A DNA stretch of 56,105 nt from Candidatus Curtissbacteria bacterium RIFCSPLOWO2_12_FULL_41_16 (GCA_001776545.1 MFBZ01000002.1:1-56105), one strand, 5' to 3'. Counted from the first letter of the stretch, positions 33,563 to 53,476 are shown. Made by a program: numbers and translations. Notes: a model not told the origin generated them from the sequence alone.

Positions 33563-34309
33563 AACTACGAGGTCCGACCTCGCAGTTACAGTAGTATAAT
33601 CAGATCATGCCTTCCAAACACTCAGTTAAATTATACATTGAGAACGGGATCTACCATGTTTACAACCGTGGTGTTGAAAAAAGAACTATCTTTCAAGATC
33701 ACGACTACAAAGTCTTCCTTCACTATTTGAAGCGCTATTTATCTGAGCCAAACAACGAGGTCGGACCTCGTTGGAAACTTCGGTGGAACCAAGGCCTCCA
33801 CGAGAAGTTGCATTTAATGGCATATTGCTTGATGCCGAATCATTTTCATCTGTTACTTAAACAGTTTTCAAAAGAAGCAATAACTACTCTCATGCGATGT
33901 CTTTCGAATTCGTACACCAAATATTTCAACGAAAAATATGATCGAGTAGGCCCCCTCTTCCAGGGGAAATTTAAGGCTGTTTTAGTTGAAAATGATAATT
34001 ATCTTTTGCACTTGACACGCTACATCCACCTGAATCCTATCAACCATCGAGAAAGTACTACGAGGTCCGACCTCGTAGTACTGGCAAAATTCAATTACTC
34101 AAGCTACGCCGATTACTTAGGAAAAAGGCATACTCAGTGGCTTAATGTTAAAGAGGTATTAAATTACTTCAATAACCCTACATCTCTCAATATCTATAAG
34201 AAACATTCGTATAAAGAATTCGTAGAAGATTTTGCTATTGATTCCGGTTCCGCACTTCAGGAACTAGTGATTGAATAGTAGCTACGAGAACTACGAGGTC
34301 CGACCTCGT
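33563..34309 (+). mobile_element. REP-RAYT unit: IS200-like tyrosine transposase gene flanked by and containing REP hairpins
   Basis: Hairpins at 33563-33587 (upstream), 33753-33773 and 34054-34082 (within the CDS) and 34293-34309 (downstream). All share ACGAGGTC-S-GACCTCGT, with CTAC/GTAG next to the stem. Confidence 0.8.
33607..34278 (+). CDS. REP-associated tyrosine transposase (RAYT, IS200/Y1 HUH family)
   Basis: 223 aa with YHVYNRG, HUH motif MPNHFHLLLKQ and catalytic Tyr block HLTRYIHLNP. Confidence 0.85.
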   Translation: MPSKHSVKLYIENGIYHVYNRGVEKRTIFQDHDYKVFLHYLKRYLSEPNNEVGPRWKLRWNQGLHEKLHLMAYCLMPNHFHLLLKQFSKEAITTLMRCLSNSYTKYFNEKYDRVGPLFQGKFKAVLVENDNYLLHLTRYIHLNPINHRESTTRSDLVVLAKFNYSSYADYLGKRHTQWLNVKEVLNYFNNPTSLNIYKKHSYKEFVEDFAIDSGSALQELVIE

Positions 34310-34422: not shown

Positions 34423-35025
34423 ATGCAATTAAGAAAACTTATCTACCTTCTATCCATTTTAGTTACGGTTATTTCATTTGTGGCTATTCTAAAAGTCACC
34501 TACGCCACAAGCGTCACTATTAAGGACAACGCTGCCGGAAGCCAGAATCAAGTCAATGTAGAATCTTCTGATCAGACTAATATTAACCAGAGCAATCAGT
34601 CAAACGTCAACAACAACGTTGACGTCAATTGCAACTCGGGACAAAACAGCGCCAGCGGCAATACCGGCGGAAACGGGTCGATCAGTACCGGGGACTGTAG
34701 CGCCAACGTGGGCATTTCCAATAATCTAAACAACAATCAAGCCAATATTAATTGTCCAAATTGCCAAACACCGACCCCGACACCAAAACCCTCATTACCA
34801 ACTCCCACTCCAATATCTCTACCAGGTCAAGGTGGTGGGCCATCAGCTGGAGGTGATGAGGGAGCAGCCAGTGGACCGTCAGGCGAAGGTCAAGCCACCC
34901 AGCAGGTACTTGCTGCAGCCGGTGTTGCCCAGAACGCGCTTCTTTCTTCCATCGGATTTGGGCTGATCATTTTTGGTCTATGGCAAGCTCAAAACGCACT
35001 CGCAAAAAGAGCGCAAAGGGTCTAA
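34423..35025 (+). CDS. secreted single-module Asn/Gly-rich protein with PT linker, LAAAG motif, TM and basic tail (candidate sortase substrate)
   Basis: 200 aa with a signal peptide. Module NVNNNVDVNCNSGQNSASGNTGGNGSISTGDCSANVGISN. C-terminus VLAAAG...LLSSIGFGLIIFGLW...KRAQR. Immediately upstream of the sortase. Confidence 0.6.
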   Translation: MQLRKLIYLLSILVTVISFVAILKVTYATSVTIKDNAAGSQNQVNVESSDQTNINQSNQSNVNNNVDVNCNSGQNSASGNTGGNGSISTGDCSANVGISNNLNNNQANINCPNCQTPTPTPKPSLPTPTPISLPGQGGGPSAGGDEGAASGPSGEGQATQQVLAAAGVAQNALLSSIGFGLIIFGLWQAQNALAKRAQRV

Positions 35026-35561
35026 AATTTCCAGCTTATACCCGTCATTTTCTCAGCCTGTTTTTGATTATACTGGGGGCTGGGATTATGCTTTTTACTG
35101 CCATCAGCAAAAGCGCAGCCCAAGTTCTACCTCAAAACGAACCCCAGCAAACTCAATTCTTGGAAAAACCAGCAAAACTCTACATCCCGAGACTTGCCAA
35201 AATTCTCTATATTTCCGACGGTCAAGTAGTTGACAACCGCTGGACTATCTCCGAAACAGGGGTCTCCTATCTTACGACATCGGCAATTCCGGGCCAGGTT
35301 GGCAACAGTGTCATTTACGGCCACAATCGCAATGAAATTCTGGGAGATCTGCCTCAAGTCGTAGATGGCGATCCCATCTATGTAATTTTAGAAAGTGGTG
35401 ACTTTGTCAAATACCAAGTTGCCGAAACCAAAGTAATCCAGCCGTCCCAAGTCGAAATTTTAAATCAATCGGCAGATTCAAGACTAACGATTTACACCTG
35501 CACCGGCTTTTTAGATACTGCCCGATTTGTGGTTGTGGCCAGGCAAGTAGGTCTGATATAA
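34980..35561 (+). CDS. sortase (class uncertain)
   Basis: 193 aa with an N-terminal TM, His motif VIYGHN, catalytic Cys motif LTIYTCTG, and Arg in RFVVVAR. Confidence 0.85.
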   Translation: MASSKRTRKKSAKGLKFPAYTRHFLSLFLIILGAGIMLFTAISKSAAQVLPQNEPQQTQFLEKPAKLYIPRLAKILYISDGQVVDNRWTISETGVSYLTTSAIPGQVGNSVIYGHNRNEILGDLPQVVDGDPIYVILESGDFVKYQVAETKVIQPSQVEILNQSADSRLTIYTCTGFLDTARFVVVARQVGLI

Positions 35562-35570
35562 TGACTTTTA

Positions 35571-37163
35571 GTGAAAAAACTGCTCCCCGCCTTTCTCGCT
35601 TTTCTGCTAATCTTTTTTATCTCTCCTGTTTGGGCGCAAACGCCCCCATTTTCCGTCAACAACGCCAACCGAGTTCCTGGCCAAATTCTGGTTAAATTTA
35701 AAAGCGGGACTTCCCAGAGTTTTATCAACGAAAATCTAATCAGATTTAATGCCAGAATTGCCTCTCGGATTGAAAGATTAAACGTCTTAGCGCTTAATGT
35801 CCCAATTTCTCAAGAAGATGTTATAATTTCTGCCCTTTCCAAAATTCCCAGTGTCGAATTTGCCGAACCAGACTTTGTCGCCAAAGCCCTTACCGCAACT
35901 TCCGATCCGTCATTATCCAGCCAGTGGGGCATGTTTAAAGTTGTGGCAGCTGCCAATCCCGACCCCAGCGCTTGGAATATTACAATCGGCAGCGCAACTG
36001 CAAAAATTGCCGTTTTGGATACTGGTATCGATCAAGATCATGAAGATTTAGCTGCCAAAGTTGTCGCCAACCAAAACTTCACGTCAAGCCCAACCATTGA
36101 TGATCTCTATGGCCATGGTACCCATGTCGGCGGCATCGCTGCGGCCATTACCAATAACGCAACAGGAGTGGCCGGCCTTGGCTACAACTCCTCCCTGATG
36201 AACGTAAAGGTGCTGGACGATAGCGGTTCCGGTTATTATTCATGGATTGCCAATGGCATTATTTGGGCCACAGATAACGGTGCCAAAGTTATCAATATGA
36301 GTTTAGGCGGATCAAGCGGTTCGTCGACACTTCAAAACGCCGTTAATTACGCGGTCGCCAACGGGGTAGTTGTTGTGGCCGCAGCCGGCAATAGCGGCAA
36401 TTCGTCTCGAACCTATCCGGCCTATTATTCAAATGTCATCGCGACTGCTGCAACCGACTCAAATGACGTCAAAGCCGGTTGGTCAAGCTATGGCTCATGG
36501 GTAGATGTAGCCGCTCCCGGGGTTAACATCTATTCCACTTTCCCGAATCACCCGTATCAAATCAATAAGGCGCTAAGTTACGATTACGGTTCTGGAACTT
36601 CCATGGCCACGCCGCATGTTGCGGGTTTGGCTGCTCTTGTTTGGGCAACAGGAATTTGCGCAACCAACACCTGTGTCAGGGCACAAATTGAAAATAATGC
36701 CGATGCAATCACAGGCACTGGCACTTACTGGACTTATGGCCGCATCAATGCTTATAAATCAGTCGGCGGTACGTCGCCAAGTCCATCGCCATCGTCAACA
36801 CCTACTCCAACTCCCACACCCACTCCAACTCCAACACCGGTACCGGCGCTAACCATGCGTGTTTCCGATATTTCTATGTCGTATACAGCAATTTGGAAGT
36901 GGCGTAATGTTTACACCAAAGTCACGGTTTTGGACCAAAACAATAATCCCGTCTCTAGCGCCAATGTCTCACTTACAGTAACCCTACCATCCTCAAACAC
37001 AGCAACCAGTTCAGGATCAACAGGCAGCAATGGGACTATTACCTTCAAGGTAAGATCCAAAGAAACCGGCACTTACACATCAACCGTTATGGGCGTCACC
37101 AAGACAAACTATACTTACGATGCGGCAAGCTCCATCACAACTCAAACAGTGTTGGTCATTTGA
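35571..37163 (+). CDS. secreted subtilisin-like serine protease (S8) with I9-like propeptide, PT linker and C-terminal beta domain
   Basis: 530 aa, GTG start, signal peptide ending VWA. Catalytic triad blocks VLDTGID, HGTHVGG, GTSMATPHVAG. PSPSPSSTPTPTPTPTPTP linker. Confidence 0.92.
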   Translation: MKKLLPAFLAFLLIFFISPVWAQTPPFSVNNANRVPGQILVKFKSGTSQSFINENLIRFNARIASRIERLNVLALNVPISQEDVIISALSKIPSVEFAEPDFVAKALTATSDPSLSSQWGMFKVVAAANPDPSAWNITIGSATAKIAVLDTGIDQDHEDLAAKVVANQNFTSSPTIDDLYGHGTHVGGIAAAITNNATGVAGLGYNSSLMNVKVLDDSGSGYYSWIANGIIWATDNGAKVINMSLGGSSGSSTLQNAVNYAVANGVVVVAAAGNSGNSSRTYPAYYSNVIATAATDSNDVKAGWSSYGSWVDVAAPGVNIYSTFPNHPYQINKALSYDYGSGTSMATPHVAGLAALVWATGICATNTCVRAQIENNADAITGTGTYWTYGRINAYKSVGGTSPSPSPSSTPTPTPTPTPTPTPVPALTMRVSDISMSYTAIWKWRNVYTKVTVLDQNNNPVSSANVSLTVTLPSSNTATSSGSTGSNGTITFKVRSKETGTYTSTVMGVTKTNYTYDAASSITTQTVLVI

Positions 37164-37216: not shown

Positions 37217-37468
37217 ATGAATCAGACGGACAACGAATTCTCTACAGTTAAAATTACGCCCCAGCTACTTGCCCAAGTTATTGATGCTCTCAAGAATAAA
37301 GCGTATGGGAGTGTTGAAATCTACATTCAAAATTACCGGGTTGTCCAGATTACTGAACGAACTATTACCAAGGTACAAACTGCCAGAAGTTTTAAAAAAA
37401 TCATAACTGGCCAAAATGACAACTCGGTCAACAAGGTTCACTCAAGGCAAGTTGAATCTCAATTGTGA
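37217..37468 (+). CDS. YezD/DUF2292-like small protein
   Basis: 83 aa. LKNKAYGSVEIYIQNYRVVQITERT resembles the YezD core (GSV.i.vqdg.vvqie). Confidence 0.55.
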   Translation: MNQTDNEFSTVKITPQLLAQVIDALKNKAYGSVEIYIQNYRVVQITERTITKVQTARSFKKIITGQNDNSVNKVHSRQVESQL

Positions 37469-38312: not shown

Positions 38313-39050
38313 ATGTCACAAAACACAAAGCAAAAACAAACCCTAACTTTAAGTCCAGACTGGTTCACCATGTTTGTTTCCCAAATCGTGGATTATGGCG
38401 CCAAAGTTAGACAAAATAGTTTTAAGATGGTTGACTTTAAATCGCTCAATCCCTTCAAGAACGCCAGCGTTGACAAATTAACAAGTATTCTCAAAAAGGC
38501 AACCACCCTTGCCAAAAAGCGCGCACTGCTGCTGGTGCTTGTAATAGCCGCGCTTTCCTTATTTGCCATAGTCAGGGTTAAAGGTACGCCCCAAAATCCG
38601 CTAACTATTGCCGGTTCGCAAACTGACTTTTCACCCCAGACACAGATATCAGTTAATCGGAAATTTGAAATTCCGATTAGGAATGCAAAAGGCGCAGACA
38701 CCGGCGACAAACTGGCAGTAACACTAACAACCATTGACAGCTCCAAAAAAATTCTCATCCAAGGCAAGCCGGCAACCGCCCGCGACACCAAAGCCTTCCT
38801 TATCCTTAATTTGGAAATTGAAAATTCGATAACTAACCAGCTGACTGTCAGGCCGGTTGATTTTATCCGGTTGGTTGACGAACAGAACCGAAGCTTCGCG
38901 CCGGATGTGCACAACAATGAGGTTACGGTTGAACCGGTTTCCATTAAAAAAACCCGTGTTGGTTTTGTGGTTGATGAGGAAAAGAAGAATTTTAAATTCT
39001 TTTTTGGCGAGATAAGCGGCGAAAAGCAAACTATCGAAATCTCGATTTAG
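38313..39050 (+). CDS. membrane-anchored protein with DUF4352-like beta-sandwich domain
   Basis: 245 aa with TM LLLVLVIAALSLFAIV. FLILNLEIENSITNQLTVRPVDFIRLVD resembles DUF4352. Confidence 0.5.
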   Translation: MSQNTKQKQTLTLSPDWFTMFVSQIVDYGAKVRQNSFKMVDFKSLNPFKNASVDKLTSILKKATTLAKKRALLLVLVIAALSLFAIVRVKGTPQNPLTIAGSQTDFSPQTQISVNRKFEIPIRNAKGADTGDKLAVTLTTIDSSKKILIQGKPATARDTKAFLILNLEIENSITNQLTVRPVDFIRLVDEQNRSFAPDVHNNEVTVEPVSIKKTRVGFVVDEEKKNFKFFFGEISGEKQTIEISI

Positions 39051-39133: not shown

Positions 39134-39189
39134 AAACGGAGGTTTGTTTCTTAGGTCAAATGACCTAGGGGATAAACCTCCGTTTTTTT
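39134..39189 (+). terminator. strong two-tier intrinsic terminator
   Basis: Outer stem AAACGGAGGTTT / AAACCTCCGTTT, inner stem TAGGTC / GACCTA, followed by T7. Confidence 0.7.
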
Positions 39190-39296: not shown

Positions 39297-40586
39297 ATGC
39301 ACAAACTTCTTTATAAAGCAGGTACCGGTCTCGCAGCAGCAGCAATAATTGCGCAGGGTTTCGCAGGTGTAGCTTTGGCAAGTTTAGACGTTGAAATCTC
39401 CGGAAACGGAGCAAACAGCGATAACACTGCTAACGTTGCAGTATCAACTGATACTCAAGTTACGCAGAATAACACCGCTAACATCACAAACAACGTCAAT
39501 GTCTCAGCAGACACCGGCGCAAACGACGCCAACAAGAATACAGGCGGAGATGTAGACATTACTACAGGCAATGCCACGACAACTGTTGGTGTTTCAAACA
39601 CTGCAAATTCAAATGTTGCAGACGTTAACGGATGTTGCCCAAGCGATCTAAACGTTAAGATTTCTGGAAACGGTGCTAAGAGTGACAACGATGCAAATGT
39701 CGCAGTCAAAAACAGCACATGGGTTGACCAGAACAACTACGCCAAGATCAAGAACAACGTTGACGTAGATTCCGACACCGGCAAGAACGATGCCAACGGC
39801 AATACAGGCGGCAGTGTATCCATCACAACCGGAAATTCCTCAAGTGACGTTGCTGTTTCTAACACGGCAAACAAAAACGTTGCAACAGTAGGCAATGGTT
39901 CCGGAGGCGGATCACTCTCAGTTGTTATTTCTGGAAACGGTTACAAGAGCACTAACACTGCAAATGTAGCAGTAGCATCTCTAACAGGTGTTCAACAGAA
40001 TAACAGAGCAAAGATCACCAATGACGTTGACGTCGATGCAGACACCGGCAAGAACGATGCTAACCACAACACCGGCGGAGATGTAGAAATCTTAACCGGC
40101 AATGCGGATGCAGAAGTTGATGTTTCCAACTTGGCAAACTTCAACTTTGCGGATGTTGATTCTTGCGGCTGTATTCTTGACGGAACCGTCAAAATAGCCG
40201 GCAACGGTGCAAAGAGCGACAACGACGCAAATGTAGCGCTTGCTAGTGCCAAGGTAATTGGCCAAAACAATGACTACTCTTGCGGTTACGGTCATAGAGG
40301 TGGAAACGACGTGAATTCTTCTTCTGAGAATGGTCACAAGTCTACACCATGCAATGACGTAAATGTCGATCTGGACACCGGTAAGAACGACGCAAACGGC
40401 AATACTGGCGACCCTGGTGGTGACCCATCAGTAACAACCGGTAATGCTGAAGCCGATGTAGTGGTCGAGACAACTGCAAATTCCAACGTTGTTGGAGATG
40501 CGGATTTCGATTTTGACTTCCCTGAGATAGATCTTGGCGGAAGTTCAGCGTCGCTACTTTTGTTGCTTTTGGCTTTCTTTAGCTAA
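39297..40586 (+). CDS. secreted protein of four ~89-aa Asn/Thr/Gly-rich modules with a hydrophobic C-terminus
   Basis: 429 aa, signal peptide ending ALA. Modules at nt 39381-39647, 39648-39914, 39915-40184 and 40185-~40510. Each contains SGNGA.S.N.ANVAV...Q.N.A.I.N.V.V..DTG.NDAN.NTGG.V.I.TGN, with Cys pairs at module junctions. Confidence 0.75.
   Translation: MHKLLYKAGTGLAAAAIIAQGFAGVALASLDVEISGNGANSDNTANVAVSTDTQVTQNNTANITNNVNVSADTGANDANKNTGGDVDITTGNATTTVGVSNTANSNVADVNGCCPSDLNVKISGNGAKSDNDANVAVKNSTWVDQNNYAKIKNNVDVDSDTGKNDANGNTGGSVSITTGNSSSDVAVSNTANKNVATVGNGSGGGSLSVVISGNGYKSTNTANVAVASLTGVQQNNRAKITNDVDVDADTGKNDANHNTGGDVEILTGNADAEVDVSNLANFNFADVDSCGCILDGTVKIAGNGAKSDNDANVALASAKVIGQNNDYSCGYGHRGGNDVNSSSENGHKSTPCNDVNVDLDTGKNDANGNTGDPGGDPSVTTGNAEADVVVETTANSNVVGDADFDFDFPEIDLGGSSASLLLLLLAFFS
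39381..40510 (+). repeat. four tandem ~267-270-nt coding repeats (protein modules)
   Basis: Module boundaries were read from the translation. The long antisense ORFs here are a by-product of the repeat composition. Confidence 0.8.
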
Positions 40587-40600
40587 AGAGCAAAATCCTA

Positions 40601-40669
40601 ATTCTTGGAGGCTTTGCCCAAAGGGTTGGAGTCTCAAAACAAGAACTCTGAGGGTAAACCTCCAAGAAT
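40601..40669 (+). other. long-range stem structure in the 3' region of the 39297 gene
   Basis: ATTCTTGGAGG (40601-40611) pairs with CCTCCAAGAAT (40659-40669), an 11-bp perfect stem enclosing 47 nt. No T-run follows. Confidence 0.5.
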
Positions 40670-40681
40670 GAAGGGGTATAA

Positions 40682-40716
40682 ATAACAATTGACATTTGAC
40701 AATTAACAATTGACAG
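40682..40716 (+). repeat. period-7 repeat ATAACAA TTGACAT TTGACAA TTAACAA TTGACAG
   Basis: Five units in one register, including three TTGACA hexamers. Confidence 0.75.
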
Positions 40717-40775
40717 GAGTTAATTTCCCGAAATTCTGCCCGCAAGATAAAAATACTTAATTAGGAAATACTAAC

Positions 40776-43049
40776 TTGATAAGATTTGTAAAAAAATTAA
40801 GAAAAGTTTTTATAAGCTGGGTGCTTGTTTTTGCACTTGTTTTGGGAACGCCTACTTTTGTATTTTCGCAGACTGCACCGGATCCCCTTACACCTCCTGA
40901 TCCGATAACTGCACCAGAACCATTGAATATTTCGCCGCCTCCTGCACCGACACCGCCGCCAGCGCCCACACCTCCGCCTCCAATAGTATTTCCATCGCCA
41001 AGCCCATTTCCGAGCCCCTCACCCATAGTTGCGCCTTCGCCATTGCCGACTACTCAGCAAACTTCAGGGTCAACAGACCAAAACCAAGGTTCTACTACCC
41101 AAACCAGAAATAGGAACAGCACAAACGAGGGCACAACCGCAAACAGCACGCCCACGGTTTCCGCGGACACAGGCCACAGTTCTTCGGGTAACACTGGCGG
41201 CAATACAGCCATTGCAACAGGCAACGCAACTGCAGCAGGTGTCATTACATCCACTGCAAATGGTGCGGTAGTAACAGCAGGCAGCGGTTCCTCATGCAGT
41301 GCCTGTGTTCCTTCGGCATCTGCGACAAACAGCGGAAACGGTGCCGATTCGACCAATAATTCTTCCGCTTCCACTTCAAATAATACGGATGTGGATATCA
41401 ACAACACCGCGGTTATTGTTAACAATGCTAATTTTGAAGCCGACAGCGGCCACAACAACACTTCTTACAATACGGGCGGGGACTCCGATATCATTTCAGG
41501 CGATGCCAATGTTTCGGCAACCGTAATTACCAACGCAAATTCCGTTAATTTGGGCATTTATGAATTTGATGTTGTTGATAACCACACAGGGGATATAATC
41601 TTGGGGCAAAATCTGGAAAATTGCGTAAACTGTACCTCCGGTTCAACTTCGGCAGAAAACTCGGGGAACGGTGCCGATTCTACAAATGATGCAACGGCTT
41701 CTTCAAATTCGACCACAACCGAAACCATAAACAATGATGCGGATGTTGTAAACAATATTAATATTGATGCCGACAGCGGTCACAATAAGGCAAATTACAA
41801 TACAAACGGCGATTCCAACATTACGACCGGTGATGCCAATGTTGTTGCCAATGTTGTAAACGCAGTCAACACAGTTGTAGATGGCGTTGTTTATACAGTC
41901 AATATCTTCGGCGATTTGGTCGGTAATATAATTTTGCCCGACCAAAACTCTCAGGCCGACAGTGGTTGCGACAATTGCTGTGGTGGCGATGTCTTGGCGT
42001 CCAACACAAACAATGGTGCAGACAGCACCAATACAACGACTGCCTCAGTATCTTCGACTTCAACAACAACTCAAACTAACAATGCCACTATCAATAACAA
42101 TTTGAACCTTGATGCCAATTCCGGAGGGAATCAGACAAGCTTTAACACAGGTGGCGATAATTTGGTTGAGACAGGGGATGTTTCAGTTGATGCCAATGTG
42201 ATTAACGTTGCCAACGTCAATGTTGCAGGAACAGCTTGTGACTCACCTGTTTATATGGTCTTTATTAACGACCCAAATGGTAACTGGCAAGGGCAAATCG
42301 CCGGAGCAGGTCCTGGAACTTATTTCTATACTTCGGATGGCCTCATTTATGTGGTTGGCGAAAATGGTGATTTAATCGCCGTTAATTCCGGCAATGGTGC
42401 GGGTTCAACAAGCACTTCGACTGCCACACAGTCCAGCGATACCAACATTACTCAGAACAATACCGGCACGATCACCAACAACATCAATATCGATGCCAAT
42501 ACCGGTGATAACCAGGCTTCTTACAACACGAATGGTGACTCAAGCGTTAAAACCGGTGATGCCAATATCTTTGTCAATGTCGTAAACTTTATTAACTCCA
42601 ATTTCTCCGGCCGCAAAATTGTCATGACTTTAGTTAACGTCTTTGGTTCTTGGCTTGGCCATTTCGTGCCGCCGGGATTTAGCGCGCCGACAAACCAGGC
42701 GCAGGGGGATAATCCTGACACATCCAGCCAATCACAATCAGGCGGTCAGCAAGGATCAGGCGGATCCGGTGGTTCATCCTCATCAACTTCGTCAGGATCC
42801 GGCAGTCAGCCAATAGTTGGTAGTATTGCCTCCGGCGCAAGTTCCGTCTTTACCGGACTGGTTGGTGGCGCAAGAACAGAAAAAATTGTTCAAGACGACA
42901 ACTCCATAGCCCTTGGTCTATCATCCAATGGTCAGGACAACCAAACACAAGAAGATTCATCACTTGGTTTCAAACTATTATTGTTTGCAATTCCGCTAAT
43001 TTTTATCGGGTTCTTTTTAAGAAGACTACTCGCGCGTTCTCAATCCTGA
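40776..43049 (+). CDS. large secreted/anchored protein: Pro-rich N-region, at least 5 Asn/Thr/Gly-rich modules, Ser/Gly-rich stalk, C-terminal TM plus basic tail
   Basis: 757 aa, TTG start, signal peptide ending VFSQ. Repeated cores such as ADSGHNKANYNTNGDSNITTGDANVVANVVN. CxxC-type junctions (SCSAC, NCVNC, GCDNCC). C-terminus FKLLLFAIPLIFIGFFLRRLLAR. Confidence 0.75.
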   Translation: MIRFVKKLRKVFISWVLVFALVLGTPTFVFSQTAPDPLTPPDPITAPEPLNISPPPAPTPPPAPTPPPPIVFPSPSPFPSPSPIVAPSPLPTTQQTSGSTDQNQGSTTQTRNRNSTNEGTTANSTPTVSADTGHSSSGNTGGNTAIATGNATAAGVITSTANGAVVTAGSGSSCSACVPSASATNSGNGADSTNNSSASTSNNTDVDINNTAVIVNNANFEADSGHNNTSYNTGGDSDIISGDANVSATVITNANSVNLGIYEFDVVDNHTGDIILGQNLENCVNCTSGSTSAENSGNGADSTNDATASSNSTTTETINNDADVVNNINIDADSGHNKANYNTNGDSNITTGDANVVANVVNAVNTVVDGVVYTVNIFGDLVGNIILPDQNSQADSGCDNCCGGDVLASNTNNGADSTNTTTASVSSTSTTTQTNNATINNNLNLDANSGGNQTSFNTGGDNLVETGDVSVDANVINVANVNVAGTACDSPVYMVFINDPNGNWQGQIAGAGPGTYFYTSDGLIYVVGENGDLIAVNSGNGAGSTSTSTATQSSDTNITQNNTGTITNNINIDANTGDNQASYNTNGDSSVKTGDANIFVNVVNFINSNFSGRKIVMTLVNVFGSWLGHFVPPGFSAPTNQAQGDNPDTSSQSQSGGQQGSGGSGGSSSSTSSGSGSQPIVGSIASGASSVFTGLVGGARTEKIVQDDNSIALGLSSNGQDNQTQEDSSLGFKLLLFAIPLIFIGFFLRRLLARSQS

Positions 43050-43196: not shown

Positions 43197-44441
43197 ATGG
43201 AAGAATTCTCGAAATTATTAAAGCTGATTGAAGAAAGAAAGCCAAAAATCGGCATAATCGGAGCCGGTTATGTTGGACAGTCCGTTGCCCGTGGTGCACT
43301 ATCAGTAGGTTTTGAAGTACTTTGTTATGATATCGACCGTTCCAAAATTACGTCTATCAATCATCAAGGAATAAAAAATTTGTCCGCGACGGACAAATTC
43401 GAAGACTTAAAACACCGCCACGTTATTTGCATTTGTGTCCCTACTCCCATTACCAAAAAAAAGAAACCAGATCTTTCAATCCTTACCAAAATTTTAACAA
43501 AGCTTGAAAATCAGCTGCAAATCGGTCAGTTGATTATCATTGAAAGCTCGGTTGCTCCTGGAACGACCAGAAATCTTGCACTTCCTATCCTCGAGCGCTC
43601 TAAGCTAAAAACTGGCGAGGATTTTTTCCTTGCCCACTCACCTGAAAGAATTGATCCGGGCAATTTTGATTTCACTATTCAAAATACCCCTAAAATCGTA
43701 AGCGGCATAGATGATAAATCAAAAAAACTTGCAATCGCATTCTATGGCACTTTTGTCCAAAAAATTGTTCCTGTTTCCACGGTCGAAGTTGCCGAAATGA
43801 CCAAAGTCTTGGAAAATACCTTTCGTCTTGTTAATATCAGTCTCATCAATGAAGTTGCTGCCTTTGCCAAGGCCAGCGGCATCGACATTTGGGAAGTAAT
43901 TGAAGCGGCAGCAACAAAGCCCTATGGATTCTTGCCCCATTATCCCGGACCGGGCGCTGGGGGAGACTGCATTCCGGTTTTGCCGTATCATTTAATCGAC
44001 GCCGCCAAAAAACAAAATGTCAAACTGAAAATTGTCGAGGCCGCAGCTCGCGTCAATGAAACACAACCCCAAAAGATAGCCCAAAAAGCGATTCAACTCA
44101 TAAATGGCAAAACTAAAAATGGCAGCCCCAAAGTATTACTAGTAGGTGTTTCCTACAAGCCGGAAATCGCAGATACCCGTCAGTCACCGGCCATCAAAAT
44201 TTGGCAACACCTTAAAAAATCCGGTATCTCTGTGGTTTTTCATGATCCCTATGTTAAACAAATCAACGGCTCAACATCTCAAAAATTAACCTTAAAAACA
44301 GTCGAAAGCTGCGATGTGGTAATAATTACAACTCATCATAAAAAAATTGCTTATCGCCAACTTTTGAAAAATGGAACTCCGATAATCGATACCAGAAATA
44401 TTTTCGAGAACCTCAATCACCCCAATATTCACAGGATCTAG
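43197..44441 (+). CDS. nucleotide-sugar 6-dehydrogenase (UDP-glucose/UDP-ManNAc dehydrogenase family)
   Basis: 414 aa with IGIIGAGYVGQ Rossmann motif and catalytic Cys block GPGAGGDCIPVLP. Confidence 0.88.
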   Translation: MEEFSKLLKLIEERKPKIGIIGAGYVGQSVARGALSVGFEVLCYDIDRSKITSINHQGIKNLSATDKFEDLKHRHVICICVPTPITKKKKPDLSILTKILTKLENQLQIGQLIIIESSVAPGTTRNLALPILERSKLKTGEDFFLAHSPERIDPGNFDFTIQNTPKIVSGIDDKSKKLAIAFYGTFVQKIVPVSTVEVAEMTKVLENTFRLVNISLINEVAAFAKASGIDIWEVIEAAATKPYGFLPHYPGPGAGGDCIPVLPYHLIDAAKKQNVKLKIVEAAARVNETQPQKIAQKAIQLINGKTKNGSPKVLLVGVSYKPEIADTRQSPAIKIWQHLKKSGISVVFHDPYVKQINGSTSQKLTLKTVESCDVVIITTHHKKIAYRQLLKNGTPIIDTRNIFENLNHPNIHRI

Positions 44442-44500
44442 TAAATTCATCTTGCAATAACCCGCCTTCTAATATAAAATATTGGCTCTGCCCCCAAATT

Positions 44501-45505
44501 ATGCGAATTCTTGTGACCGGCGGCGCCGGATTCATTGGCACGAATCTTGTTAGAAGCCTTTTAGAACAAGGTCACGAAGTTATCGTACTCGATAATCTGA
44601 TTACCGGTCACGTCAAAAACGTCCTTCCTTTTATTGCCAATCCGAGGTTTACTTTTATTGAAAAAGATATTATCAATCCTTTTGTCTCTGCCAAAAATGA
44701 AATCCTCACCGTTGACCAAATTTATCACCTTGCTTGCCCGACAGGTGTTAACAATCTTGGGTCACTTGCCGAGGAGATGCTTTTAACCTGCGCGATCGGC
44801 ACTAAAAATGTTCTTGAACTTGCGAAGGTCCATAAGACTCGTTTTCTATTTACCTCCTCATCCGAAGTTTATGGAGATCCGGAAGTTTCGCCTCAAAAAG
44901 AAGAGTACACTGGAAATGTTGACCCGACTGGTTTCAGAAGTCCATACGAGGAGGGCAAGAGGTTCGCCGAAAGTCTGATAATATCTTATGTGCGAAAATA
45001 CAATCTCGATGCCACAATCGTCCGCGTTTTCAATACCTATGGACCACAAATGTCCCCGAAGGACACTCGTGTTATTCCCCGACTCTTGCGCCTGGCTTTA
45101 ACTAAAAAGCCATTAACCATTCATGGAAAAGGTCTTCAGAGAAGAACTTTCTGTTATGTCGACGATTTTGTTAAGGGTTTAATTTTGGTAATGGGAAAAG
45201 GCAAAAAGGGTCAAGTGTATAACTTAGGATCTGAATCGGAATTTTCTATTATCGAACTTGCTCAAATAATTTTAGAAATGACCAAAACAAAAAGCACCTT
45301 TAAATTTACAAAGCGCCCCGCCCATGACCACCAAATGCGTCTTCCGGCATTAGAAAAGATTAAAAAATTAGGCTGGCGTCCCAAGACTTCTCTTAAGGAG
45401 GGCCTTAAAAAAACTATCAATTTACAGACGGAATCTGCAAGTCTTGTTCACAAAGACTCGATGGGCAAAAAGGAGGAAAAATGGCAGCAATACCCGGCTT
45501 TTTAG
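44501..45505 (+). CDS. UDP-glucuronate decarboxylase (UDP-xylose synthase-like SDR)
   Basis: 334 aa with GGAGFIGTN, YHLACP, SSSEVYGDPEVSPQKEEY, YEEGKRFAE. Confidence 0.82.
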   Translation: MRILVTGGAGFIGTNLVRSLLEQGHEVIVLDNLITGHVKNVLPFIANPRFTFIEKDIINPFVSAKNEILTVDQIYHLACPTGVNNLGSLAEEMLLTCAIGTKNVLELAKVHKTRFLFTSSSEVYGDPEVSPQKEEYTGNVDPTGFRSPYEEGKRFAESLIISYVRKYNLDATIVRVFNTYGPQMSPKDTRVIPRLLRLALTKKPLTIHGKGLQRRTFCYVDDFVKGLILVMGKGKKGQVYNLGSESEFSIIELAQIILEMTKTKSTFKFTKRPAHDHQMRLPALEKIKKLGWRPKTSLKEGLKKTINLQTESASLVHKDSMGKKEEKWQQYPAF

Positions 45506-46734
45506 GAATTCCAGGAATCAATGTTACATTCTGGAGTACTATCGGAGCCTTAAGATTTTTACAGGAAAAAATTTTGCACCACGAAAAGCAGACTAGATCT
45601 GAAAAAAACCTGACACGTTGGATGAAAAAAAATGTTGTTGCCGTTGCGATCGCCGCCCGAAACGAAGAACATGCCTTGCCTAGAACACTTAGATCTCTAA
45701 AAAATCAAGTAAGACCAAGAAACATCTTTGTGGCTTCCGATGGTTCACGAGATAACACCGCAAAAGTGGCCAGAAGGTTTCGGGTGAACGTTACGGAGCT
45801 TTATCCGAACCGAGGCAAAGCAGGCGCTTTGGTCAGCTTAATTGAAAAATTTAAACTTTTAGATAAGTATCTTTTTATTCTTTTTGTCGATGCCGACACT
45901 CATATTAATCGCAATTATCTTGTCGAAGCCATACCATTTTTTGCCGATCCTGATGTAGTCGCTGTTGCCGGTCACGGTAAAACTGCCTGGAGAAAACATC
46001 CTTATCCTTGCTGGAAAATGTTTTTTGCTTCTTACCGGGATCGTCTCTACAATTTTTTACAATACACAATTCGCTGGGGTCAAACATCCAAATGGTTAAA
46101 CGTTTCTCCAATTATTCCGGGCTTTGCTTCAATCTACAGAACATCAGCTCTTAAAAAAATCGACATCGCCACACCCGGATTGGTTATCGAAGATTTCAAC
46201 ATGACTTTTCAAATTCATCACAAAAAATTAGGTAAAATTGCCTATCATCCGAAAGCTTATGGCATTGCCCGCGACCCGACAAACTTTAGAGATTATGCAA
46301 ACCAAGTAAAAAGATGGAATCTGGGCTTCTGGCAAACCGTTATTAAACACGGTATTTGGCCAAGTATCTTCTCGCTTACTTTAGTTACTTTTGTCAGCGA
46401 GTCTCTTTTGACTGCCTTTGTCTTTTCTTTGTTTCCGTTTATTTTTGTAATTTTACTGGTTAAATATTTTGGCCAGTTTTTCCCCGAGCAAGTCACTCAA
46501 CTTGCTTTATCAGTCGGATCATATGTCACCTTGCTAGAAATTTTTGCCGTGTTCTTTATAGCCGATTATTTGATTACTTTTATTGTTGCCGTTTTTACCA
46601 GACGACCTCAACATTTATTTTACGGCCTGGGTTTCCCGTTTCTGCGTTTTGTTGATGCTATACTGATCCTTTGGAGTTTACCTTTGGCTTTTATTACCAA
46701 ATCCAAAGGCTCCTGGGTAAGCCCAAAACGCTAA
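45481..46734 (+). CDS. processive family 2 glycosyltransferase (PgaC/NodC/cellulose-synthase-like) with C-terminal TM bundle
   Basis: 417 aa with ASDGSRDNT, FVDADT, VIEDFNMT and the Q-x-x-R-W motif QVKRW, followed by at least 4 TM segments. Confidence 0.8.
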   Translation: MAAIPGFLGIPGINVTFWSTIGALRFLQEKILHHEKQTRSEKNLTRWMKKNVVAVAIAARNEEHALPRTLRSLKNQVRPRNIFVASDGSRDNTAKVARRFRVNVTELYPNRGKAGALVSLIEKFKLLDKYLFILFVDADTHINRNYLVEAIPFFADPDVVAVAGHGKTAWRKHPYPCWKMFFASYRDRLYNFLQYTIRWGQTSKWLNVSPIIPGFASIYRTSALKKIDIATPGLVIEDFNMTFQIHHKKLGKIAYHPKAYGIARDPTNFRDYANQVKRWNLGFWQTVIKHGIWPSIFSLTLVTFVSESLLTAFVFSLFPFIFVILLVKYFGQFFPEQVTQLALSVGSYVTLLEIFAVFFIADYLITFIVAVFTRRPQHLFYGLGFPFLRFVDAILILWSLPLAFITKSKGSWVSPKR

Positions 46735-46882
46735 ATGCCCAAAGATATGCCTTCTTGCTTTACTTGGTGGCGTTATTGCTGTTGAGTATGAAGCCAAAAT
46801 TGCAAAACTAATGGAAAAAGTTCTGCAATTTCTAGATCCCAGCAGCCCATAGGAGAGTTGCACCATCAGTCATAGACTTTGT

Positions 46883-47968
46883 TTACTTTCCAAGCTCTTC
46901 CCAGATTTTGGGATCCTCAGCGCCAATTCGCCAAATTGCAAATTTATCAGTGCCAAATTCATTCATGGCAATAAGCATTTTCTCGGTGATTGCTCTGGCA
47001 TTCTCAAACCAGATTTCTCGATCCTGGCCGTCTTTTTGATAACGATAAATGGCGGAGGATACTTTTTCGTCAAATTTTACAGACGGTGTTGCTTCGCCAA
47101 TTCGTGCTTGGATTTGGCCGAAGGTTAATGGTTCACCTTTCTTATTATCCCAGTCGTAGCCGTGTGTCGAAAGGCCAATAACAATTTTTTCGCCAGGAAT
47201 ATTTTTTACAGCATAGTTCAAAACCTGCCGCATCCAGGTCAAGGGCGCTTGGCCTCCCGGGCCGGTTTCGTCATCGTGTGCACCATACATCATGATTCGT
47301 ACCTCGTCGCTCACTTTACCCAGAGCTCTATAGTCTTGAGCCAAAGCCGATGGATTATCGTCATTGCCTACTCTGGCGAAAACAGTGACAGAAAACTTAA
47401 GATTATTTTCGTGTAAGGCCTCAGCTGTCTCTTCTACAAATTCCGAGAAAGCTTGCCTGTCTTTCGTTTTTAATGACTCTATATCGATATCCCAACCGAT
47501 AAAGCCTTCCTTTTTAGCTTCTTCAATCAGAGATTCAATAAATTTTTCTTGAATTTTGCCATCGTAAAGAAGTAGCGAAACCCTCTCAAAATCGAAGTCA
47601 TCGCCGATTTGCGGCATAATTGCTATATTTTTATTTTTAGCATTTTGTAAAAATTCTTTTTTGTAAAGCACTCTGTATTTTTCTAAGGATCCATCCGTTT
47701 CGATTCGGTATAAAACGGGTGTAAAAACACTCATTCTCTCGATAGATCTGGGAAGTGCCTCAAGAGTATTTTTTTCATCCCAATAGGCCGTCCAGCCGAT
47801 TATTTTGGCATCTTTTAGGGTCTTTTGGGGTTGTGTTTCCCCTATTGATGTGTTAGTTTCCGATTTCAATCCGGAAAAAATGTTTTGTTTGTAAAACACC
47901 AGCAATACGGCACCTATTAATAAAAGTAACAAAATTTTTTTTTGCGTATTCATCTTTTTAGTTGCCAA
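46883..47968 (-). CDS. GH18-like glycoside hydrolase, membrane-anchored/secreted
   Basis: 361 aa. GFIGWDIDIE matches the GH18 DxxDxDxE block. TTG start at 47968 is preceded by GGGGAGG at 7-nt spacing. An alternative ATG at 47953 makes an ATGA overlap with the upstream gene. Confidence 0.7.
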   Translation of the reverse strand: MATKKMNTQKKILLLLLIGAVLLVFYKQNIFSGLKSETNTSIGETQPQKTLKDAKIIGWTAYWDEKNTLEALPRSIERMSVFTPVLYRIETDGSLEKYRVLYKKEFLQNAKNKNIAIMPQIGDDFDFERVSLLLYDGKIQEKFIESLIEEAKKEGFIGWDIDIESLKTKDRQAFSEFVEETAEALHENNLKFSVTVFARVGNDDNPSALAQDYRALGKVSDEVRIMMYGAHDDETGPGGQAPLTWMRQVLNYAVKNIPGEKIVIGLSTHGYDWDNKKGEPLTFGQIQARIGEATPSVKFDEKVSSAIYRYQKDGQDREIWFENARAITEKMLIAMNEFGTDKFAIWRIGAEDPKIWEELGK

Positions 47969-49368
47969 ATTCTAACCTCCCCATCATCAAAGAACAAAAA
48001 ATATTTTTCACTAAGAGCCTTTTCGATTGCTAAAATTGAATCGAGAGAGAAACTGGTACCATCGAGTTCAACAAAATTAAAATATTCGTCGTCAATTGCC
48101 GCAAGGTAAGCAGGTAATCCTTCTTTGTCTTTAAAAGAAAAAACAAAAGGCCCCATGATTTGGTCAGATTTTATCTTATTATAGAAAGCCAAAGTTACCA
48201 CATCACCAGCTTCGGCCAGGATTTTATCATTTGGTGTGACTTCGGCTTTTAAGGCCCATACGGCTTTGTCGGTGTTGGGCCAGAAACTTTCTAATTCTCG
48301 AACTTTGGATGCTGAATAAAACAAATTGAAAGCAATTGCTGCTCCCGCAAGAAGAATTCCGGCTTTAGGATTTTTTTGGATGATTGTAGAAAAGAAAATG
48401 CCGACTAGGGGTAAAATGAAAATTAATGAAAGAAAACTATGTTGGGCCACAGACAGGCCCTCTCTTGCAACAAGATGGGCAATTAAAGGCAAAACGGATG
48501 CGACCGCCAAAAGAATGGTTAAGGCCCCTTTTTTCTTTTGCCAAAGCACAATTACGCCTCCCAAAGAAAACAGATAGGAGATCCACAAGTATTTCCAAAA
48601 ATTCTCCAAAATTGCCGAAAATGAAGCCATTTCTTTTAATGTTTGGCCCAAGGTAAAGTCAACTAAACTAGAAAAATTTATAATTAAATAAAACATACTT
48701 AAAAAAATCAAAGGCAACCAAAAATATTTGAGGATTGTAATCGTTGCGGCCCTCTCCTCTCTCTTTAAGTTAAGATAAATGGGTAATGCCAGTAAGAATG
48801 GGAAAAAGATTGCCACGATATATTTTGCTAAAAAAGCAAAAAATAAAGCTATTGCCGAAGATAGATATCGGAATCTATTGCCTTCTTGGAGAGCCTTTTG
48901 AAAGATTACTATCGCCATCAGAAAAATGGTAAAAGAAAGCATGTCATAAATTGCCAGCCTACTTAAGGCAATCGGAATTGCTGTGGTTGCCGCAAAAGTA
49001 GCTGCGATGAAACTAGTTATTCTGTTTGGCGCCTCTTCTTTTAAAAGATGAAGTTGGTTTGTGAATTTGTAAATCAGAAAAACGGCTGCTGTTCCCAAAA
49101 ATACGTTGAAAATTCTTGATCCCAAAATTCCTCCAATTTGGTAAAAAATTGCCGAAAGTAGCGGATAGAAAAAAGGCAAACCGCCAACCCAAGAAATAGA
49201 GTCGGCTACCTCACGGAATTGTCCCTCAAGAATTTTTTTCCCAAAAACTACGTAAATTGCTTCATCAAGAAAAGGCGAATTGTAATCAATATTGATAATT
49301 CTTACTACAAAGGCATAGAGAATAATCAAAGGAAGAATTAATGGAGAAAAATTGTTTTTAAATAACAT
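47950..49368 (-). CDS. polytopic GT-C fold glycosyltransferase (ArnT/PMT-like)
   Basis: 472 aa with more than 10 TM segments. The first-loop motif YNSPFLDEAIYVVFG is typical of the ArnT/GT39/GT83 type. Confidence 0.65.
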   Translation of the reverse strand: MLFKNNFSPLILPLIILYAFVVRIINIDYNSPFLDEAIYVVFGKKILEGQFREVADSISWVGGLPFFYPLLSAIFYQIGGILGSRIFNVFLGTAAVFLIYKFTNQLHLLKEEAPNRITSFIAATFAATTAIPIALSRLAIYDMLSFTIFLMAIVIFQKALQEGNRFRYLSSAIALFFAFLAKYIVAIFFPFLLALPIYLNLKREERAATITILKYFWLPLIFLSMFYLIINFSSLVDFTLGQTLKEMASFSAILENFWKYLWISYLFSLGGVIVLWQKKKGALTILLAVASVLPLIAHLVAREGLSVAQHSFLSLIFILPLVGIFFSTIIQKNPKAGILLAGAAIAFNLFYSASKVRELESFWPNTDKAVWALKAEVTPNDKILAEAGDVVTLAFYNKIKSDQIMGPFVFSFKDKEGLPAYLAAIDDEYFNFVELDGTSFSLDSILAIEKALSEKYFLFFDDGEVRIWQLKR

Positions 49369-50011
49369 TTAAAACCCAATCTTTTCCTTCATGGAGTAAA
49401 TAATGAACTGTTGAATAAGGATACATAGCGGTTAAATTTTTCTTGACATAAATATGCTTGATATTATTCTTTTCAATTTCCTTTAATCTTTCCTTGTTTA
49501 GATAATCTTTCGCGCCGACTCCGGAAAGATAAGTATCTGCCCCGTGTTTCTTACAGATATTTATCAAAAGTTCGTGTTTATTTCCAGTGACATCTTCATC
49601 TAAAACCACGGGGGTTTTAATTTCTAAAATACCGCGCAATGTTAAAATTGCTGCTAAATTTAAATCAACCAGTCTTTCCCAAGGACTCTCATAAATTTTA
49701 GTAAGCTCACCCATATATTCGTGGCCCTTACCCTTGGAATAAATAATTTCCAGTGATCGACGGTGCTTTTTTCGCCAATTAATCTGATTATTAATCTTTA
49801 CATCTTTTATTTTCTGGTTTTGAGATCCCACTACTGGCACTGTTAACCAAATATCGCCATTGGGCCCTTTAATTTTGTGTCTTTGTTGCCAGCCTTCCTG
49901 CTTTTCAAACTGCAGATTCGTAATAACCACAAACTTGTCTGCCTGCTTCATTTTAGAAAAGAAAGCTAAATTGGGTAAAAAATTAGGTTGGTGAGCCGCA
50001 ATTATACTCAT
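49358..50011 (-). CDS. WbqC-family protein
   Basis: 217 aa. The N-terminus IIAAHQPNFLPNLAFFSKMKQADKFVVITNLQFEKQEGWQQRHKIK matches the WbqC signature. Confidence 0.75.
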   Translation of the reverse strand: MSIIAAHQPNFLPNLAFFSKMKQADKFVVITNLQFEKQEGWQQRHKIKGPNGDIWLTVPVVGSQNQKIKDVKINNQINWRKKHRRSLEIIYSKGKGHEYMGELTKIYESPWERLVDLNLAAILTLRGILEIKTPVVLDEDVTGNKHELLINICKKHGADTYLSGVGAKDYLNKERLKEIEKNNIKHIYVKKNLTAMYPYSTVHYLLHEGKDWVLNVI

Positions 50012-50736: not shown

Positions 50737-50790
50737 CTTGTGAAAGGCAAAAATAACACTTTATGGGATAAATTTCAACCTGAATCACTT

Positions 50791-50848
50791 TTGATCTATT
50801 TTCACACACTTTGTCCGTCTTGACCTCCAAGATATAAACCCTTAAAAT
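50791..50848 (+). promoter_or_regulatory. promoter (TTGACC-17-TAAAAT) with conserved upstream box
   Basis: Hexamers at 50820-50825 and 50843-50848. The box TTGATCTATTTTCACACACTTTGTCCGTC is shared with 53371-53400. Confidence 0.55.
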
Positions 50849-50976: not shown

Positions 50977-51321
50977 ATGAAAAGATTGTTAACCAGAGTT
51001 GGCGTCGGGGTTACCGCAGCTTCAATGTTTGCGGCAGCTTTTGCTCCGGCCGCCGCTTTTGCTAATGGTGGTGGTAACAGTTGCGAGATTAAAAACAACG
51101 GTGCCTTTTCCCGCAACCGCTGCCGGATTACCGAAATAAATGTCCAGGTAACCAGACAGAACAACCGGGCCAGCATTTGGAACGGCGTTTTGGTGATTGC
51201 CAATACCGGCGGAAATGAGGCCAACGGAAATACCGGCGGCAATGTCGACGTCGACAGTGGCAATGCCACGGTTAATGTCAGAATTACCAATACCGTTAAT
51301 CAAGACAATACTGCTAATTAG
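50977..51321 (+). CDS. small secreted single-module Asn/Gly-rich protein
   Basis: 114 aa from ATG 50977, with SD GGAGGTG 8 nt upstream. Signal peptide ending AFA. Module ...VLVIANTGGNEANGNTGGNVDVDSGNATVNVRITN. The ORF-track start 50878 is rejected. Confidence 0.7.
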   Translation: MKRLLTRVGVGVTAASMFAAAFAPAAAFANGGGNSCEIKNNGAFSRNRCRITEINVQVTRQNNRASIWNGVLVIANTGGNEANGNTGGNVDVDSGNATVNVRITNTVNQDNTAN

Positions 51322-53353: not shown

Positions 53354-53370
53354 TTTTGCAAGGAGAGTCT

Positions 53371-53429
53371 TTGATCCATTTTCACACCACTTCGTCCCAA
53401 TTGACACGTAGTTTTCATGGGTCTAATCT
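53371..53429 (+). promoter_or_regulatory. promoter (TTGACA-17-TAATCT) with conserved upstream box
   Basis: Hexamers at 53401-53406 and 53424-53429. The box TTGATCCATTTTCACACCACTTCGTCCC resembles the one at 50791-50819. Confidence 0.55.
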
Positions 53430-53476
53430 GGATTGAACACCAATTTCAGTCTGCATGCAAGTTACTGTCCGACTGT

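Follow-up and report, generated by a model that had tools for sequence, protein, structure and literature searches.

A 56,105-nucleotide (nt) stretch of DNA from Candidatus Curtissbacteria bacterium RIFCSPLOWO2_12_FULL_41_16 (GCA_001776545.1, MFBZ01000002.1:1-56105; "the window", at its full length, in what follows) encodes four proteins, A, B, C and D, that are built from one or more copies of a single module of about 88 amino acids (aa). They belong to an unnamed, undescribed family of exported cell-surface proteins. All four genes lie on the plus strand: C at 34423..35025, A at 39297..40586, B at 40776..43049 and D at 50977..51321. We searched the 596 six-frame open reading frame (ORF) segments of the window with a profile hidden Markov model (HMM) made from 56 modules of orthologues, all taken outside the window. 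Exactly four ORFs matched. A (E = 2e-113) has four modules, of which the last is interrupted by an insertion. B (E = 4e-57) has five, and its first is a marginal match with an independent E-value of 0.03. C (E = 5e-22) and D (E = 2e-17) have one module each. An initial annotation of the stretch had named the same four ORFs, with the same coordinates and with matching copy numbers (at least five for B), and the motif that it gave for the module agrees with the consensus and invariant columns of the profile, SGNGA..S.N ... Q.N.A.I.N.V.V.A.TG.N.AN.NTGG...I.TG.A...V.V.N.AN.N. By eye, the N-termini of A-D look like the Sec signal peptides that it had assigned to them, with a basic n-region, a hydrophobic core and an AxA-type site.

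The four proteins differ in what accompanies the module. A is a secreted protein of 429 aa, in which the signal peptide (39297-39380) is followed by modules 1-4 (39381-39644, 39645-39911, 39912-40175 and 40176-40511) and by a tail that is acidic/aromatic and then briefly hydrophobic (40512-40583). The same ending recurs in A orthologues as an alternating acidic/aromatic stretch (D-F-P-E-L-P-D-F...) and some 10 hydrophobic residues without charge. In B, a protein of 757 aa, the signal peptide and a Pro-rich region precede a set of five modules, all of them trailed by a hydrophobic insertion (41097-42605), and a Ser/Gly/Gln-rich stalk then leads to a transmembrane segment and basic tail (42969-43046). 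C is an exported protein of 200 aa in which a single module (34507-34767) comes between the signal peptide and a Pro/Gly-rich stalk; its sorting-like end (34906-35022) is composed of the LAxTG-like VLAAAG, a hydrophobic segment and KRAQRV. D, secreted and only 114 aa long, consists of a signal peptide and one module (51079-51312), at which it ends. The C-termini initially described were therefore present, namely a hydrophobic segment with a basic tail in B and C and a short uncharged hydrophobic tail in A.

Cysteines occur in A as CC (residues 113-114), CGC (290-292), C329 and C352, in B as CSAC (174-177), CVNC (283-286) and CDNCC (398-402), and in C as CPNC (111-114), the clusters being located in the linker between modules. 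The clusters are those listed in the initial annotation, which had also taken Cys pairs to delimit the modules; as a general rule that did not stand, as there is none between modules 2 and 3 of A or in a distant four-module relative (375 aa, locus L081, described below). Among A orthologues the cysteines are invariant or nearly so. In A, linker cysteines follow modules 1 and 3 and a Gly-rich linker follows module 2, an arrangement by which these cysteines could staple three layers together, and their absence from the distant relative indicates that they are not essential to the fold. Residues 326-352 of A (40272-40352) hold a 24-aa insertion in the middle of the first arm (arm A, see below) of module 4, closed by the conserved Cys329 and Cys352, which may cap the C-terminal end of the stack.

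Distribution and novelty of the family

Searches of A-D against Pfam and NCBIfam gave nothing above noise, and sequence searches of the PDB with the protein and with the module profile returned zero matches at E<=10, in keeping with the earlier statement that the module corresponds to no named domain family. Literature searches found no description of the family. Homologues of A number more than 895 and are of constant length (~400-440 aa) and four-module architecture; their source names are all "hypothetical protein", from Curtiss-, Woese- and Gottesmanbacteria and the "Microgenomates group". The module profile matched 3,267 cluster representatives among 1.84 billion at E<=1e-3 (2,162 at E<=1e-10 and 796 at E<=1e-30). 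Most of these are ~420 aa long with four modules, a few have 5-10, and the named members that we looked up among the matches were again hypothetical proteins. A scan of one genome per species, using a pattern from 10 closer sequences, found the A-type pattern in 149 genomes. Named members come almost entirely from the Microgenomates, a part of the candidate phyla radiation (CPR). Many third-party records of metagenome-assembled genomes with the operon described below are titled "uncultured Gammaproteobacteria"; since the operon in them is the same, we take these titles to be probably placeholders or wrong labels.

The biased composition of these proteins raises the question of whether they are low-complexity Asn/Thr/Gly ORFs without specific function. 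Position-specific invariance over hundreds of orthologues, conservation of length and synteny, and a structured pattern of coevolution all speak against such a compositional artefact, to which we assign next to no credence. The family is real, widespread and uncharacterised.

A conserved operon around the four-module gene

Neighbourhoods were counted in the best 80 of the 149 genomes carrying the A-type pattern (loci L001-L080), which are labelled Woese-, Levy-, Ames-, Gottesman-, Davies-, Curtiss-, Roizman-, Shapiro- or Chisholmbacteria or Patescibacteria. The conserved gene order begins with h3 and the gene of a small DUF2292 protein (h1), continues with A and B, and closes with another module protein, the third, which ends in an L(P/A/S)xTG signal, and with sortase. 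The most conserved neighbour of A is h3, found directly upstream of the A orthologue and on the same strand in 77 of the 80 loci, and the cluster includes a homologue of h1 in 48, in most cases placed between h3 and A. In 72 loci A is followed by a B-type gene. In most lineages B is succeeded by the third module protein, of 190-410 aa, and then by the sortase, which lies within the cluster in about 50 loci. The opposite strand often holds a two-module protein of ~200 aa, and D-like proteins of 115-118 aa stand directly upstream of h3 in L006, L008 and L020. A distant cluster (L081, 3878-11552; GCA_016203935.1, labelled Parcubacteria group) keeps a trio of four-, one- and nine-module proteins behind an S8 protease gene: a 375-aa four-module protein without Cys, a 223-aa one-module protein ending in LPAAG, a transmembrane segment and RRRNR, and a 1,183-aa nine-module protein. 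The operon is sortase-linked and conserved class-wide.

The initial annotation had described the module genes as interleaved with a sortase, a secreted subtilisin, TasA-like proteins and a glycan-synthesis locus. Of these associations only that with sortase is conserved, in about 50 of the 80 loci. Linkage to an S8 protease (6 loci), to TasA-like genes within 10 kb (10-14 loci) and to glycan genes (1-3 loci) is not conserved. The conserved partners are instead the h3 membrane protein and the DUF2292 protein, neither of which had been named.

In the window, as in its closest relatives, the substrate-sortase pair is placed upstream, and the order is C, sortase, h1, h2, h3, A, B. The 3' end of C overlaps by 46 nt the sortase gene (34980..35561, plus strand; Pfam Sortase, E=4e-20), whose product has an N-terminal transmembrane segment, passes the generic TIGR01076 cut-off only and meets no class-specific model. 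An S8 protease is encoded at 35571-37163. h1 (37217..37468, plus strand) is a small cytoplasmic DUF2292/YezD-like protein (Pfam DUF2292, E=4e-6), and h3 (38313..39050, plus strand) is a single-pass membrane protein with an extracellular beta-rich domain and a weak DUF4352 match (E=6e-4) under the curated cut-off. Between h3 and A is a long terminator-like hairpin (39136..39183, plus strand), with a 20-bp stem followed by a T run. The motif TAAACCTCC recurs downstream of A, and the hairpin and the recurrence together suggest that A may be transcribed on its own.

Putative sortase substrates and membrane anchors

Proteins encoded immediately upstream of the sortase carry, in 44 of 49 cases, a sorting motif of the L[PAS]x[TA][GSA] type followed by a hydrophobic segment and basic tail. 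The motif is LPx[TS][GA] in 21 of them, LAxTG-like in 9, and (V/I)LGL(S/A)xT(S/G), which reads as LSxTS or LAxTG, in 14. The module is present in 39 of the 49. In the closest relatives of C, QVLAATG or SLANTG, a transmembrane segment and a basic tail stand at the equivalent place. The end of C initially described as a transmembrane segment plus basic tail is indeed there, and by comparison with these relatives C is best read as a putative sortase substrate. Among B orthologues, 68 end in a transmembrane segment and basic tail, most with an INLAW motif, after a long low-complexity stalk; by its sequence this C-terminus has the look of a membrane anchor and not of a sorting signal. The paralogues of different copy number are thus divided into anchored and free forms, which lends support to the earlier suggestion of scaffold and subunit roles.

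In the Microgenomates sortase is near-universal, and CPR bacteria are enriched in an MdbA/VKOR-type disulfide system (PMC6744442, Méheust et al.). Both fit a family of sortase clients bearing conserved extracytoplasmic cysteines. The surface location of the family and its link to sortase are well supported.

A sortase and a substrate with a sorting signal in one operon are also what would be expected of a covalent, sortase-polymerised pilus with the module proteins as its pilins. The sorting signal, however, is on the third protein only, and A, which is the best conserved of the proteins and presumably the major component, has none. The Pfam scan found no CnaB/FctA-type pilin domains, and the usually single sortase of a cluster fits no class C model. 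We regard a pilus of this kind as highly improbable.

Fold of the module

AlphaFold2 modelled A from 54 homologues with a mean predicted local distance difference test score (pLDDT) of 79.6 and a predicted template modelling score (pTM) of 0.66. The model is all beta, with strand runs at exactly equivalent positions of every module, including an uninterrupted run of 31 residues. A lone module, modelled with a 61-sequence module alignment, reached a pLDDT of 60.8 and had no secondary structure, and was too poor for use as a Foldseek query. For the four-module model, Foldseek gave no significant fold match in PDB or BFVD (none at E<=0.001; TM-score <=0.15). Parallel beta-helices and functional amyloids predominate among the weak neighbours listed, which include FapC, CsgA, pectinases and antifreeze beta-helices; the very large root-mean-square deviations of these superpositions are to be expected for a very elongated query.

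We applied mean-field direct-coupling analysis (DCA) to a set of 1,588 different modules, equivalent to an effective number of 1,442. The strongest couplings lie on a single long antidiagonal (i+j about 108-110) running from (50,58) to (25,82), and a second short antidiagonal (4-17, 4-19, 6-17, 2-21) connects positions 16-21 with the first strand. The pattern is the same in A-type and in B/C-type subsets. The long antidiagonal involves the conserved alternating inward positions only: inward-inward pairs average 1.02, and outward-outward pairs, at 0.07, are at background. Coupled core pairs compensate in volume; for example, V-I is depleted at 4-17 and T-G is 11-fold enriched at 33-76. Two arms packed face to face as sheets, and not a hydrogen-bonded hairpin, are what would give such a pattern. 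In the arm comprising positions 16-44 (arm A), conservation has a period of two residues (entropy 1.9 versus 3.26 bits); the outer-face positions are the most variable of the module, and all modules have invariant Asn, Gln and Gly residues at corresponding positions.

Couplings between modules, calculated from 295 four-module proteins, are directional. Arm B of module n and arm A of module n+1 average 0.955, as against 0.213 for arm A of n and arm B of n+1 (Wilcoxon p=6e-7; background -0.02 ± 0.22), which suggests that the chain zig-zags through A(n), B(n) and A(n+1). By numbering, the side facing arm A is continuous and runs from arm B through the linker into the first strand of the module that follows.

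Taken with the model, these couplings make it probable that each module forms a single coil, ~88 residues long, in a flattened parallel beta-solenoid of two sheets, a cross-beta-like stack, and the fold of the family can be called moderately supported. Arm A would comprise positions 16-44 and arm B positions 65-82, continued by the linker and the next first strand. The predicted core ladder has Gln29, Asn31, Ala33, Val/Ile35, Asn37, Val39, Ala41 and Ala43 on arm A, and Ala65, Val69, Val71, Asn73, Ala75, Asn76, Asn78, Ala80 and Val82 on arm B. The GNGA loop would close one narrow end of the coil and the NTGG loop the other, and the beta hydrogen bonds would all lie between successive coils. Beta-solenoid-type stacking had been suggested in the initial annotation, and the behaviour of the module as a stacked unit, not an autonomous domain, supports it.

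The main structural rival of the solenoid is an antiparallel beta-hairpin or sandwich repeat, arranged as beads or as a meander, in which case the proteins would be ordinary repetitive stalks, comparable to those that Gram-positive surface proteins build from repeats, and the AlphaFold stack an artefact. Formally, an up-down meander could also produce the antidiagonals seen by DCA and the contacts between B(n) and A(n+1), and the AlphaFold input was only 54 sequences. Such a meander is hard to reconcile with the uncoupled state of the outward pairs despite their high variability, with the failure of a lone module to yield any hairpin, with the mostly parallel beta structure of the weak Foldseek neighbours listed, and with Asn, Gln and Gly invariant at the same place in every module. 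We consider it very doubtful.

Other arrangements were examined and set aside. A multi-turn solenoid with ~22-aa turns inside the module was rejected, as DCA shows no couplings of constant separation. A compact four-strand sandwich, or antiparallel layer stacking, was drawn from pooled couplings at i+j about 70 and 146. These vanish in the A-only full-length DCA and are therefore an artefact of pooling subfamilies.

Coupling of the two end loops

Strong couplings, present in every subset, connect the GNGA loop with the NTGG loop, position 10 being paired with 54 and position 11 with 52. Ser/Thr11 is 2-2.4-fold enriched with Asp52, Ala11 occurs with Asp52 at 0.24 of expectation, and Ala10 is 25-fold enriched with Asn54. 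In the model the two loops sit at opposite ends of a coil ~40 residues long. Flaps that fold back so that the end loops meet within one coil are disfavoured, given that the register stays constant along the arms and that variability is highest on the outer faces. The coupling would be accounted for if molecules touched edge to edge.

If such contacts were made, the family could form laths ~14 nm wide and 1 nm thick, composed of 88-residue cross-beta coils, stacked along the hydrogen-bond axis and joined edge to edge through GNGA and NTGG, and it is conceivable, if rather unlikely, that this is their arrangement. We view with similar reserve the larger structure to which the laths would lead, an amyloid-like two-dimensional sheet or sheath that would be the cell coat of the Microgenomates, tethered by membrane-anchored B and by sortase-attached C.

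A related alternative likens the product to a surface layer (S-layer). Stacks along the hydrogen-bond axis would be joined GNGA ridge to NTGG ridge into a sheet or sheath, again tethered by B and C. The loop coupling is strong and chemically sensible in both the A-type and the B/C-type subsets, and the operon is conserved across the class. The cryo-electron microscopy of ultra-small groundwater cells by Luef and colleagues in 2015 reportedly revealed a surface layer on CPR-type cells, which also counts in favour. On the other side, the loop coupling is not assignable to an intermolecular contact, Pfam and NCBIfam scans of A-D found no SLH or other S-layer anchoring domain, and a 1-nm sheet of this kind is without precedent. 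An S-layer-like coat is, on balance, distinctly unlikely.

Other features of the window

Genes for sugar-nucleotide enzymes and glycosyltransferases occupy 43197-50736, between B and D. Two TasA/camelysin-type proteins with SipW-type signal peptides are encoded at 53417-54661 and 55046-55984, and a GIY-YIG ORF (54723-55037) stands between them. A box of 18 nt, TTTGATCYATTTTCACAC, is found on the plus strand at 50790..50807, upstream of D, and at 53370-53387, upstream of the first TasA-like gene. The sharing of an upstream box by these two genes had been reported in the initial annotation and is confirmed: at <=3 mismatches the window holds just these two matches, where chance predicts 0.23. 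The box, which is part of a similar stretch of ~40 nt ending in TTGAC, may be a regulatory site common to D and the first TasA-like gene.

The palindrome RGGTCSGACCY has 9 copies in the window (29759, 29805, 33570, 33758, 34063, 34296, 53147, 53189 and 53227) as against 0.06 expected. Copies cluster around an IS200-like Y1 transposase gene (33607-34278; Pfam Y1_Tnp, E=1e-8), which adjoins the displaced C-sortase pair. The palindrome and the transposase look like a system of the REP/RAYT type (repetitive extragenic palindromes with their associated tyrosine transposase) in a CPR genome. Two adjacent paralogous ORFs at 9664-11022 and 11080-12528 have weak Peptidase_M49-like matches, both under the curated cut-off.

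Proposed assembly

We propose that anchored B and C present open coils at the cell surface, on which secreted A and D stack, and we put the probability of this mechanism at about 0.5. All members of the family would be exported by Sec. B would be held in the membrane by its C-terminal transmembrane segment, behind a long flexible stalk, and C-type members, with their L(P/A/S)xTG signal, would be attached to the wall by the adjacent sortase. Both anchors would thereby show open-ended coils outside the wall, their modules carried at the end of Pro- or Ser/Gly-rich stalks. The four-coil A and the one-coil D would dock onto the anchors or onto each other, continuing the stack, and the product would be a non-covalent surface assembly in the form of a fibre, tape or patch. 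Two features of the proteins are important here. A single coil of the predicted fold has no internal beta hydrogen bonds, so that the conserved one-module C and D types would have to stack on other molecules, and mature A begins at its first strand directly after the signal peptide, without an N-terminal cap. The family, its operon and its predicted export and sorting signals emerge directly from the sequence comparisons; from these and the model we infer the stacking between molecules and its product, and hence that A-D may form a fibre or coat.

Several observations weigh against this proposal. We deduced the solenoid topology from DSSP strings, from DCA and from the types of structure among the weak Foldseek matches, and the mechanism as a whole is predicted from sequence. 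The asymmetry between modules n and n+1 is by itself also compatible with an antiparallel meander, against which only the uncoupled outward pairs and the lack of structure in a lone module speak. In-register couplings are no weaker between modules n and n+2 than between n and n+1; they point to concerted evolution, and we have rejected them as proof of stacking. Similarly, the GNGA-NTGG coupling is equally strong within and between modules and so cannot be localised to an intermolecular contact, and it may in part be a lineage effect. Turning to the anchors, the C protein of the window has VLAAAG, with Ala in place of Thr, and thus no canonical LAxTG. In the closest relatives a sortase-adjacent LAxTG protein has the same stalk and signal as C with an unrelated passenger domain (L002, 6487-7284; L007, 4615-5517; L012, 6503-7225), a comparison that points to the swapping of passenger domains on a constant anchor. 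Finally, the conserved Cys-bridged insertion of A, together with its conserved tail, could cap the end of the stack and limit polymerisation.

This last possibility is central to a different interpretation, in which the proteins are finite, capped beta-solenoids that form no polymer. A would be a stable four-coil lath, free or bound 1:1 to an anchor, and B and C would be anchored adhesins whose flat Thr/Asn/Asp-rich outer faces bind a host cell or a polymer. The Cys329-Cys352 insertion and the A tail could be the caps, the strict copy number of four modules is that of a defined unit, and sortase-anchored beta-solenoid adhesins (PfbA, SRRP) are among the weak Foldseek matches listed. Under this fold model, however, the conserved one-coil C and D types cannot fold alone, mature A has no cap at its N-terminus, and the outer faces are the most variable part of the module, unlike a conserved binding site. 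We judge capped, non-polymerising proteins to be unlikely and favour stacking of A and D on anchored B and C.

Relation to known surface systems

By sequence and coil geometry the family belongs to neither the chaplins, curli nor FapC. The Streptomyces chaplins, with long ChpA-C, short ChpD-H and class E sortases, are the closest in logic. Chaplins have sortase-anchored, LAxTG-type multi-module long forms and secreted short forms, both built on a hydrophobic domain of ~40 aa with conserved Cys, and their surface assembly has been proposed to proceed by beta-stacking onto the anchored members. The likeness to a C-type L(P/A/S)xTG protein beside its sortase, with A and D secreted without an anchor, is one of logic and not of sequence: A-D have no match to Pfam Chaplin at E<=1. 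In contrast to chaplins, the module described here has 88 aa and is polar, with a core of Asn/Gln ladders, the system includes an additional membrane-anchored B and h3, and its hosts are CPR bacteria, not Actinobacteria.

Curli resemble the family in having a two-sheet solenoid with one repeat per rung, rich in Gln, Asn, Gly and Ala, with 4-5 rungs per subunit, and in pairing a surface-bound nucleator (CsgB) with a secreted major subunit (CsgA, 5 rungs). CsgA (8c50) is among the weak Foldseek matches listed for the A model. A curli rung, however, has ~22 aa as compared with ~88 aa here, where the DCA antidiagonals span ~58 residues, and A-D have no match to Pfam Curlin_rpt at E<=1. Curli are exported by the Gram-negative CsgG/E/F machinery, and genes for it did not turn up among the window ORFs scanned, which were a part of the total; the family is predicted to use Sec with sortase and transmembrane anchoring, in an envelope of monoderm type. 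The imperfect repeats of Pseudomonas FapC likewise each form one layer of stacked beta structure. FapC (9u4u) was the best Foldseek match, at an E of 0.015 that is not significant (probability 0.06, TM-score 0.07-0.13); its layers are under half the size, and Fap relies on an outer-membrane secretion system.

Streptococcus pneumoniae PfbA and the binding region of Lactobacillus reuteri SRRP carry parallel beta structure on an LPXTG-anchored stalk. They differ in being three-sided right-handed helices with coils of ~20-25 aa, monomeric and capped, without free one- or four-coil paralogues. Right-handed parallel beta-helices as a group gave Foldseek matches at E>=0.1 and TM-score <=0.06 and no Pfam Beta_helix match, and DCA favours a coil of 88 aa with two sides. 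Bacillus TasA/TapA likewise combine a secreted fibre subunit with a wall-associated anchoring or nucleating protein, but TasA subunits have a jelly-roll fold and are joined by donor-strand exchange, and A-D have no Peptidase_M73 (TasA/camelysin) match in Pfam or NCBIfam. Calcium-binding beta-rolls of the RTX type, with their GGxGxDxUx nonapeptide repeats, are not indicated either: Pfam gave no HemolysinCabind match, and NTGGD occurs a single time in each 88 aa. Pam pili, which were recently described from CPR bacteria, are made of proteins different from A-D.

The proteins of this family are small, cysteine-stapled and repeat-encoded, and can be tested recombinantly without culturing the organism. 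A two-sheet coil of ~88 residues, if true, would add considerably to the range of coil sizes that is known, and such a solenoid would make globular beta-solenoids and functional amyloids harder to tell apart as classes. Should the coat also prove to be real, it would contain the largest natural beta-solenoid coil known, and a surface layer of CPR bacteria would for the first time be identified at the molecular level. The Microgenomates are a large uncultured branch of the bacteria whose envelope proteins are almost entirely "hypothetical". For them the operon supplies the first candidate substrates of a near-universal sortase, and the surface assembly proposed here could mediate attachment or protection.

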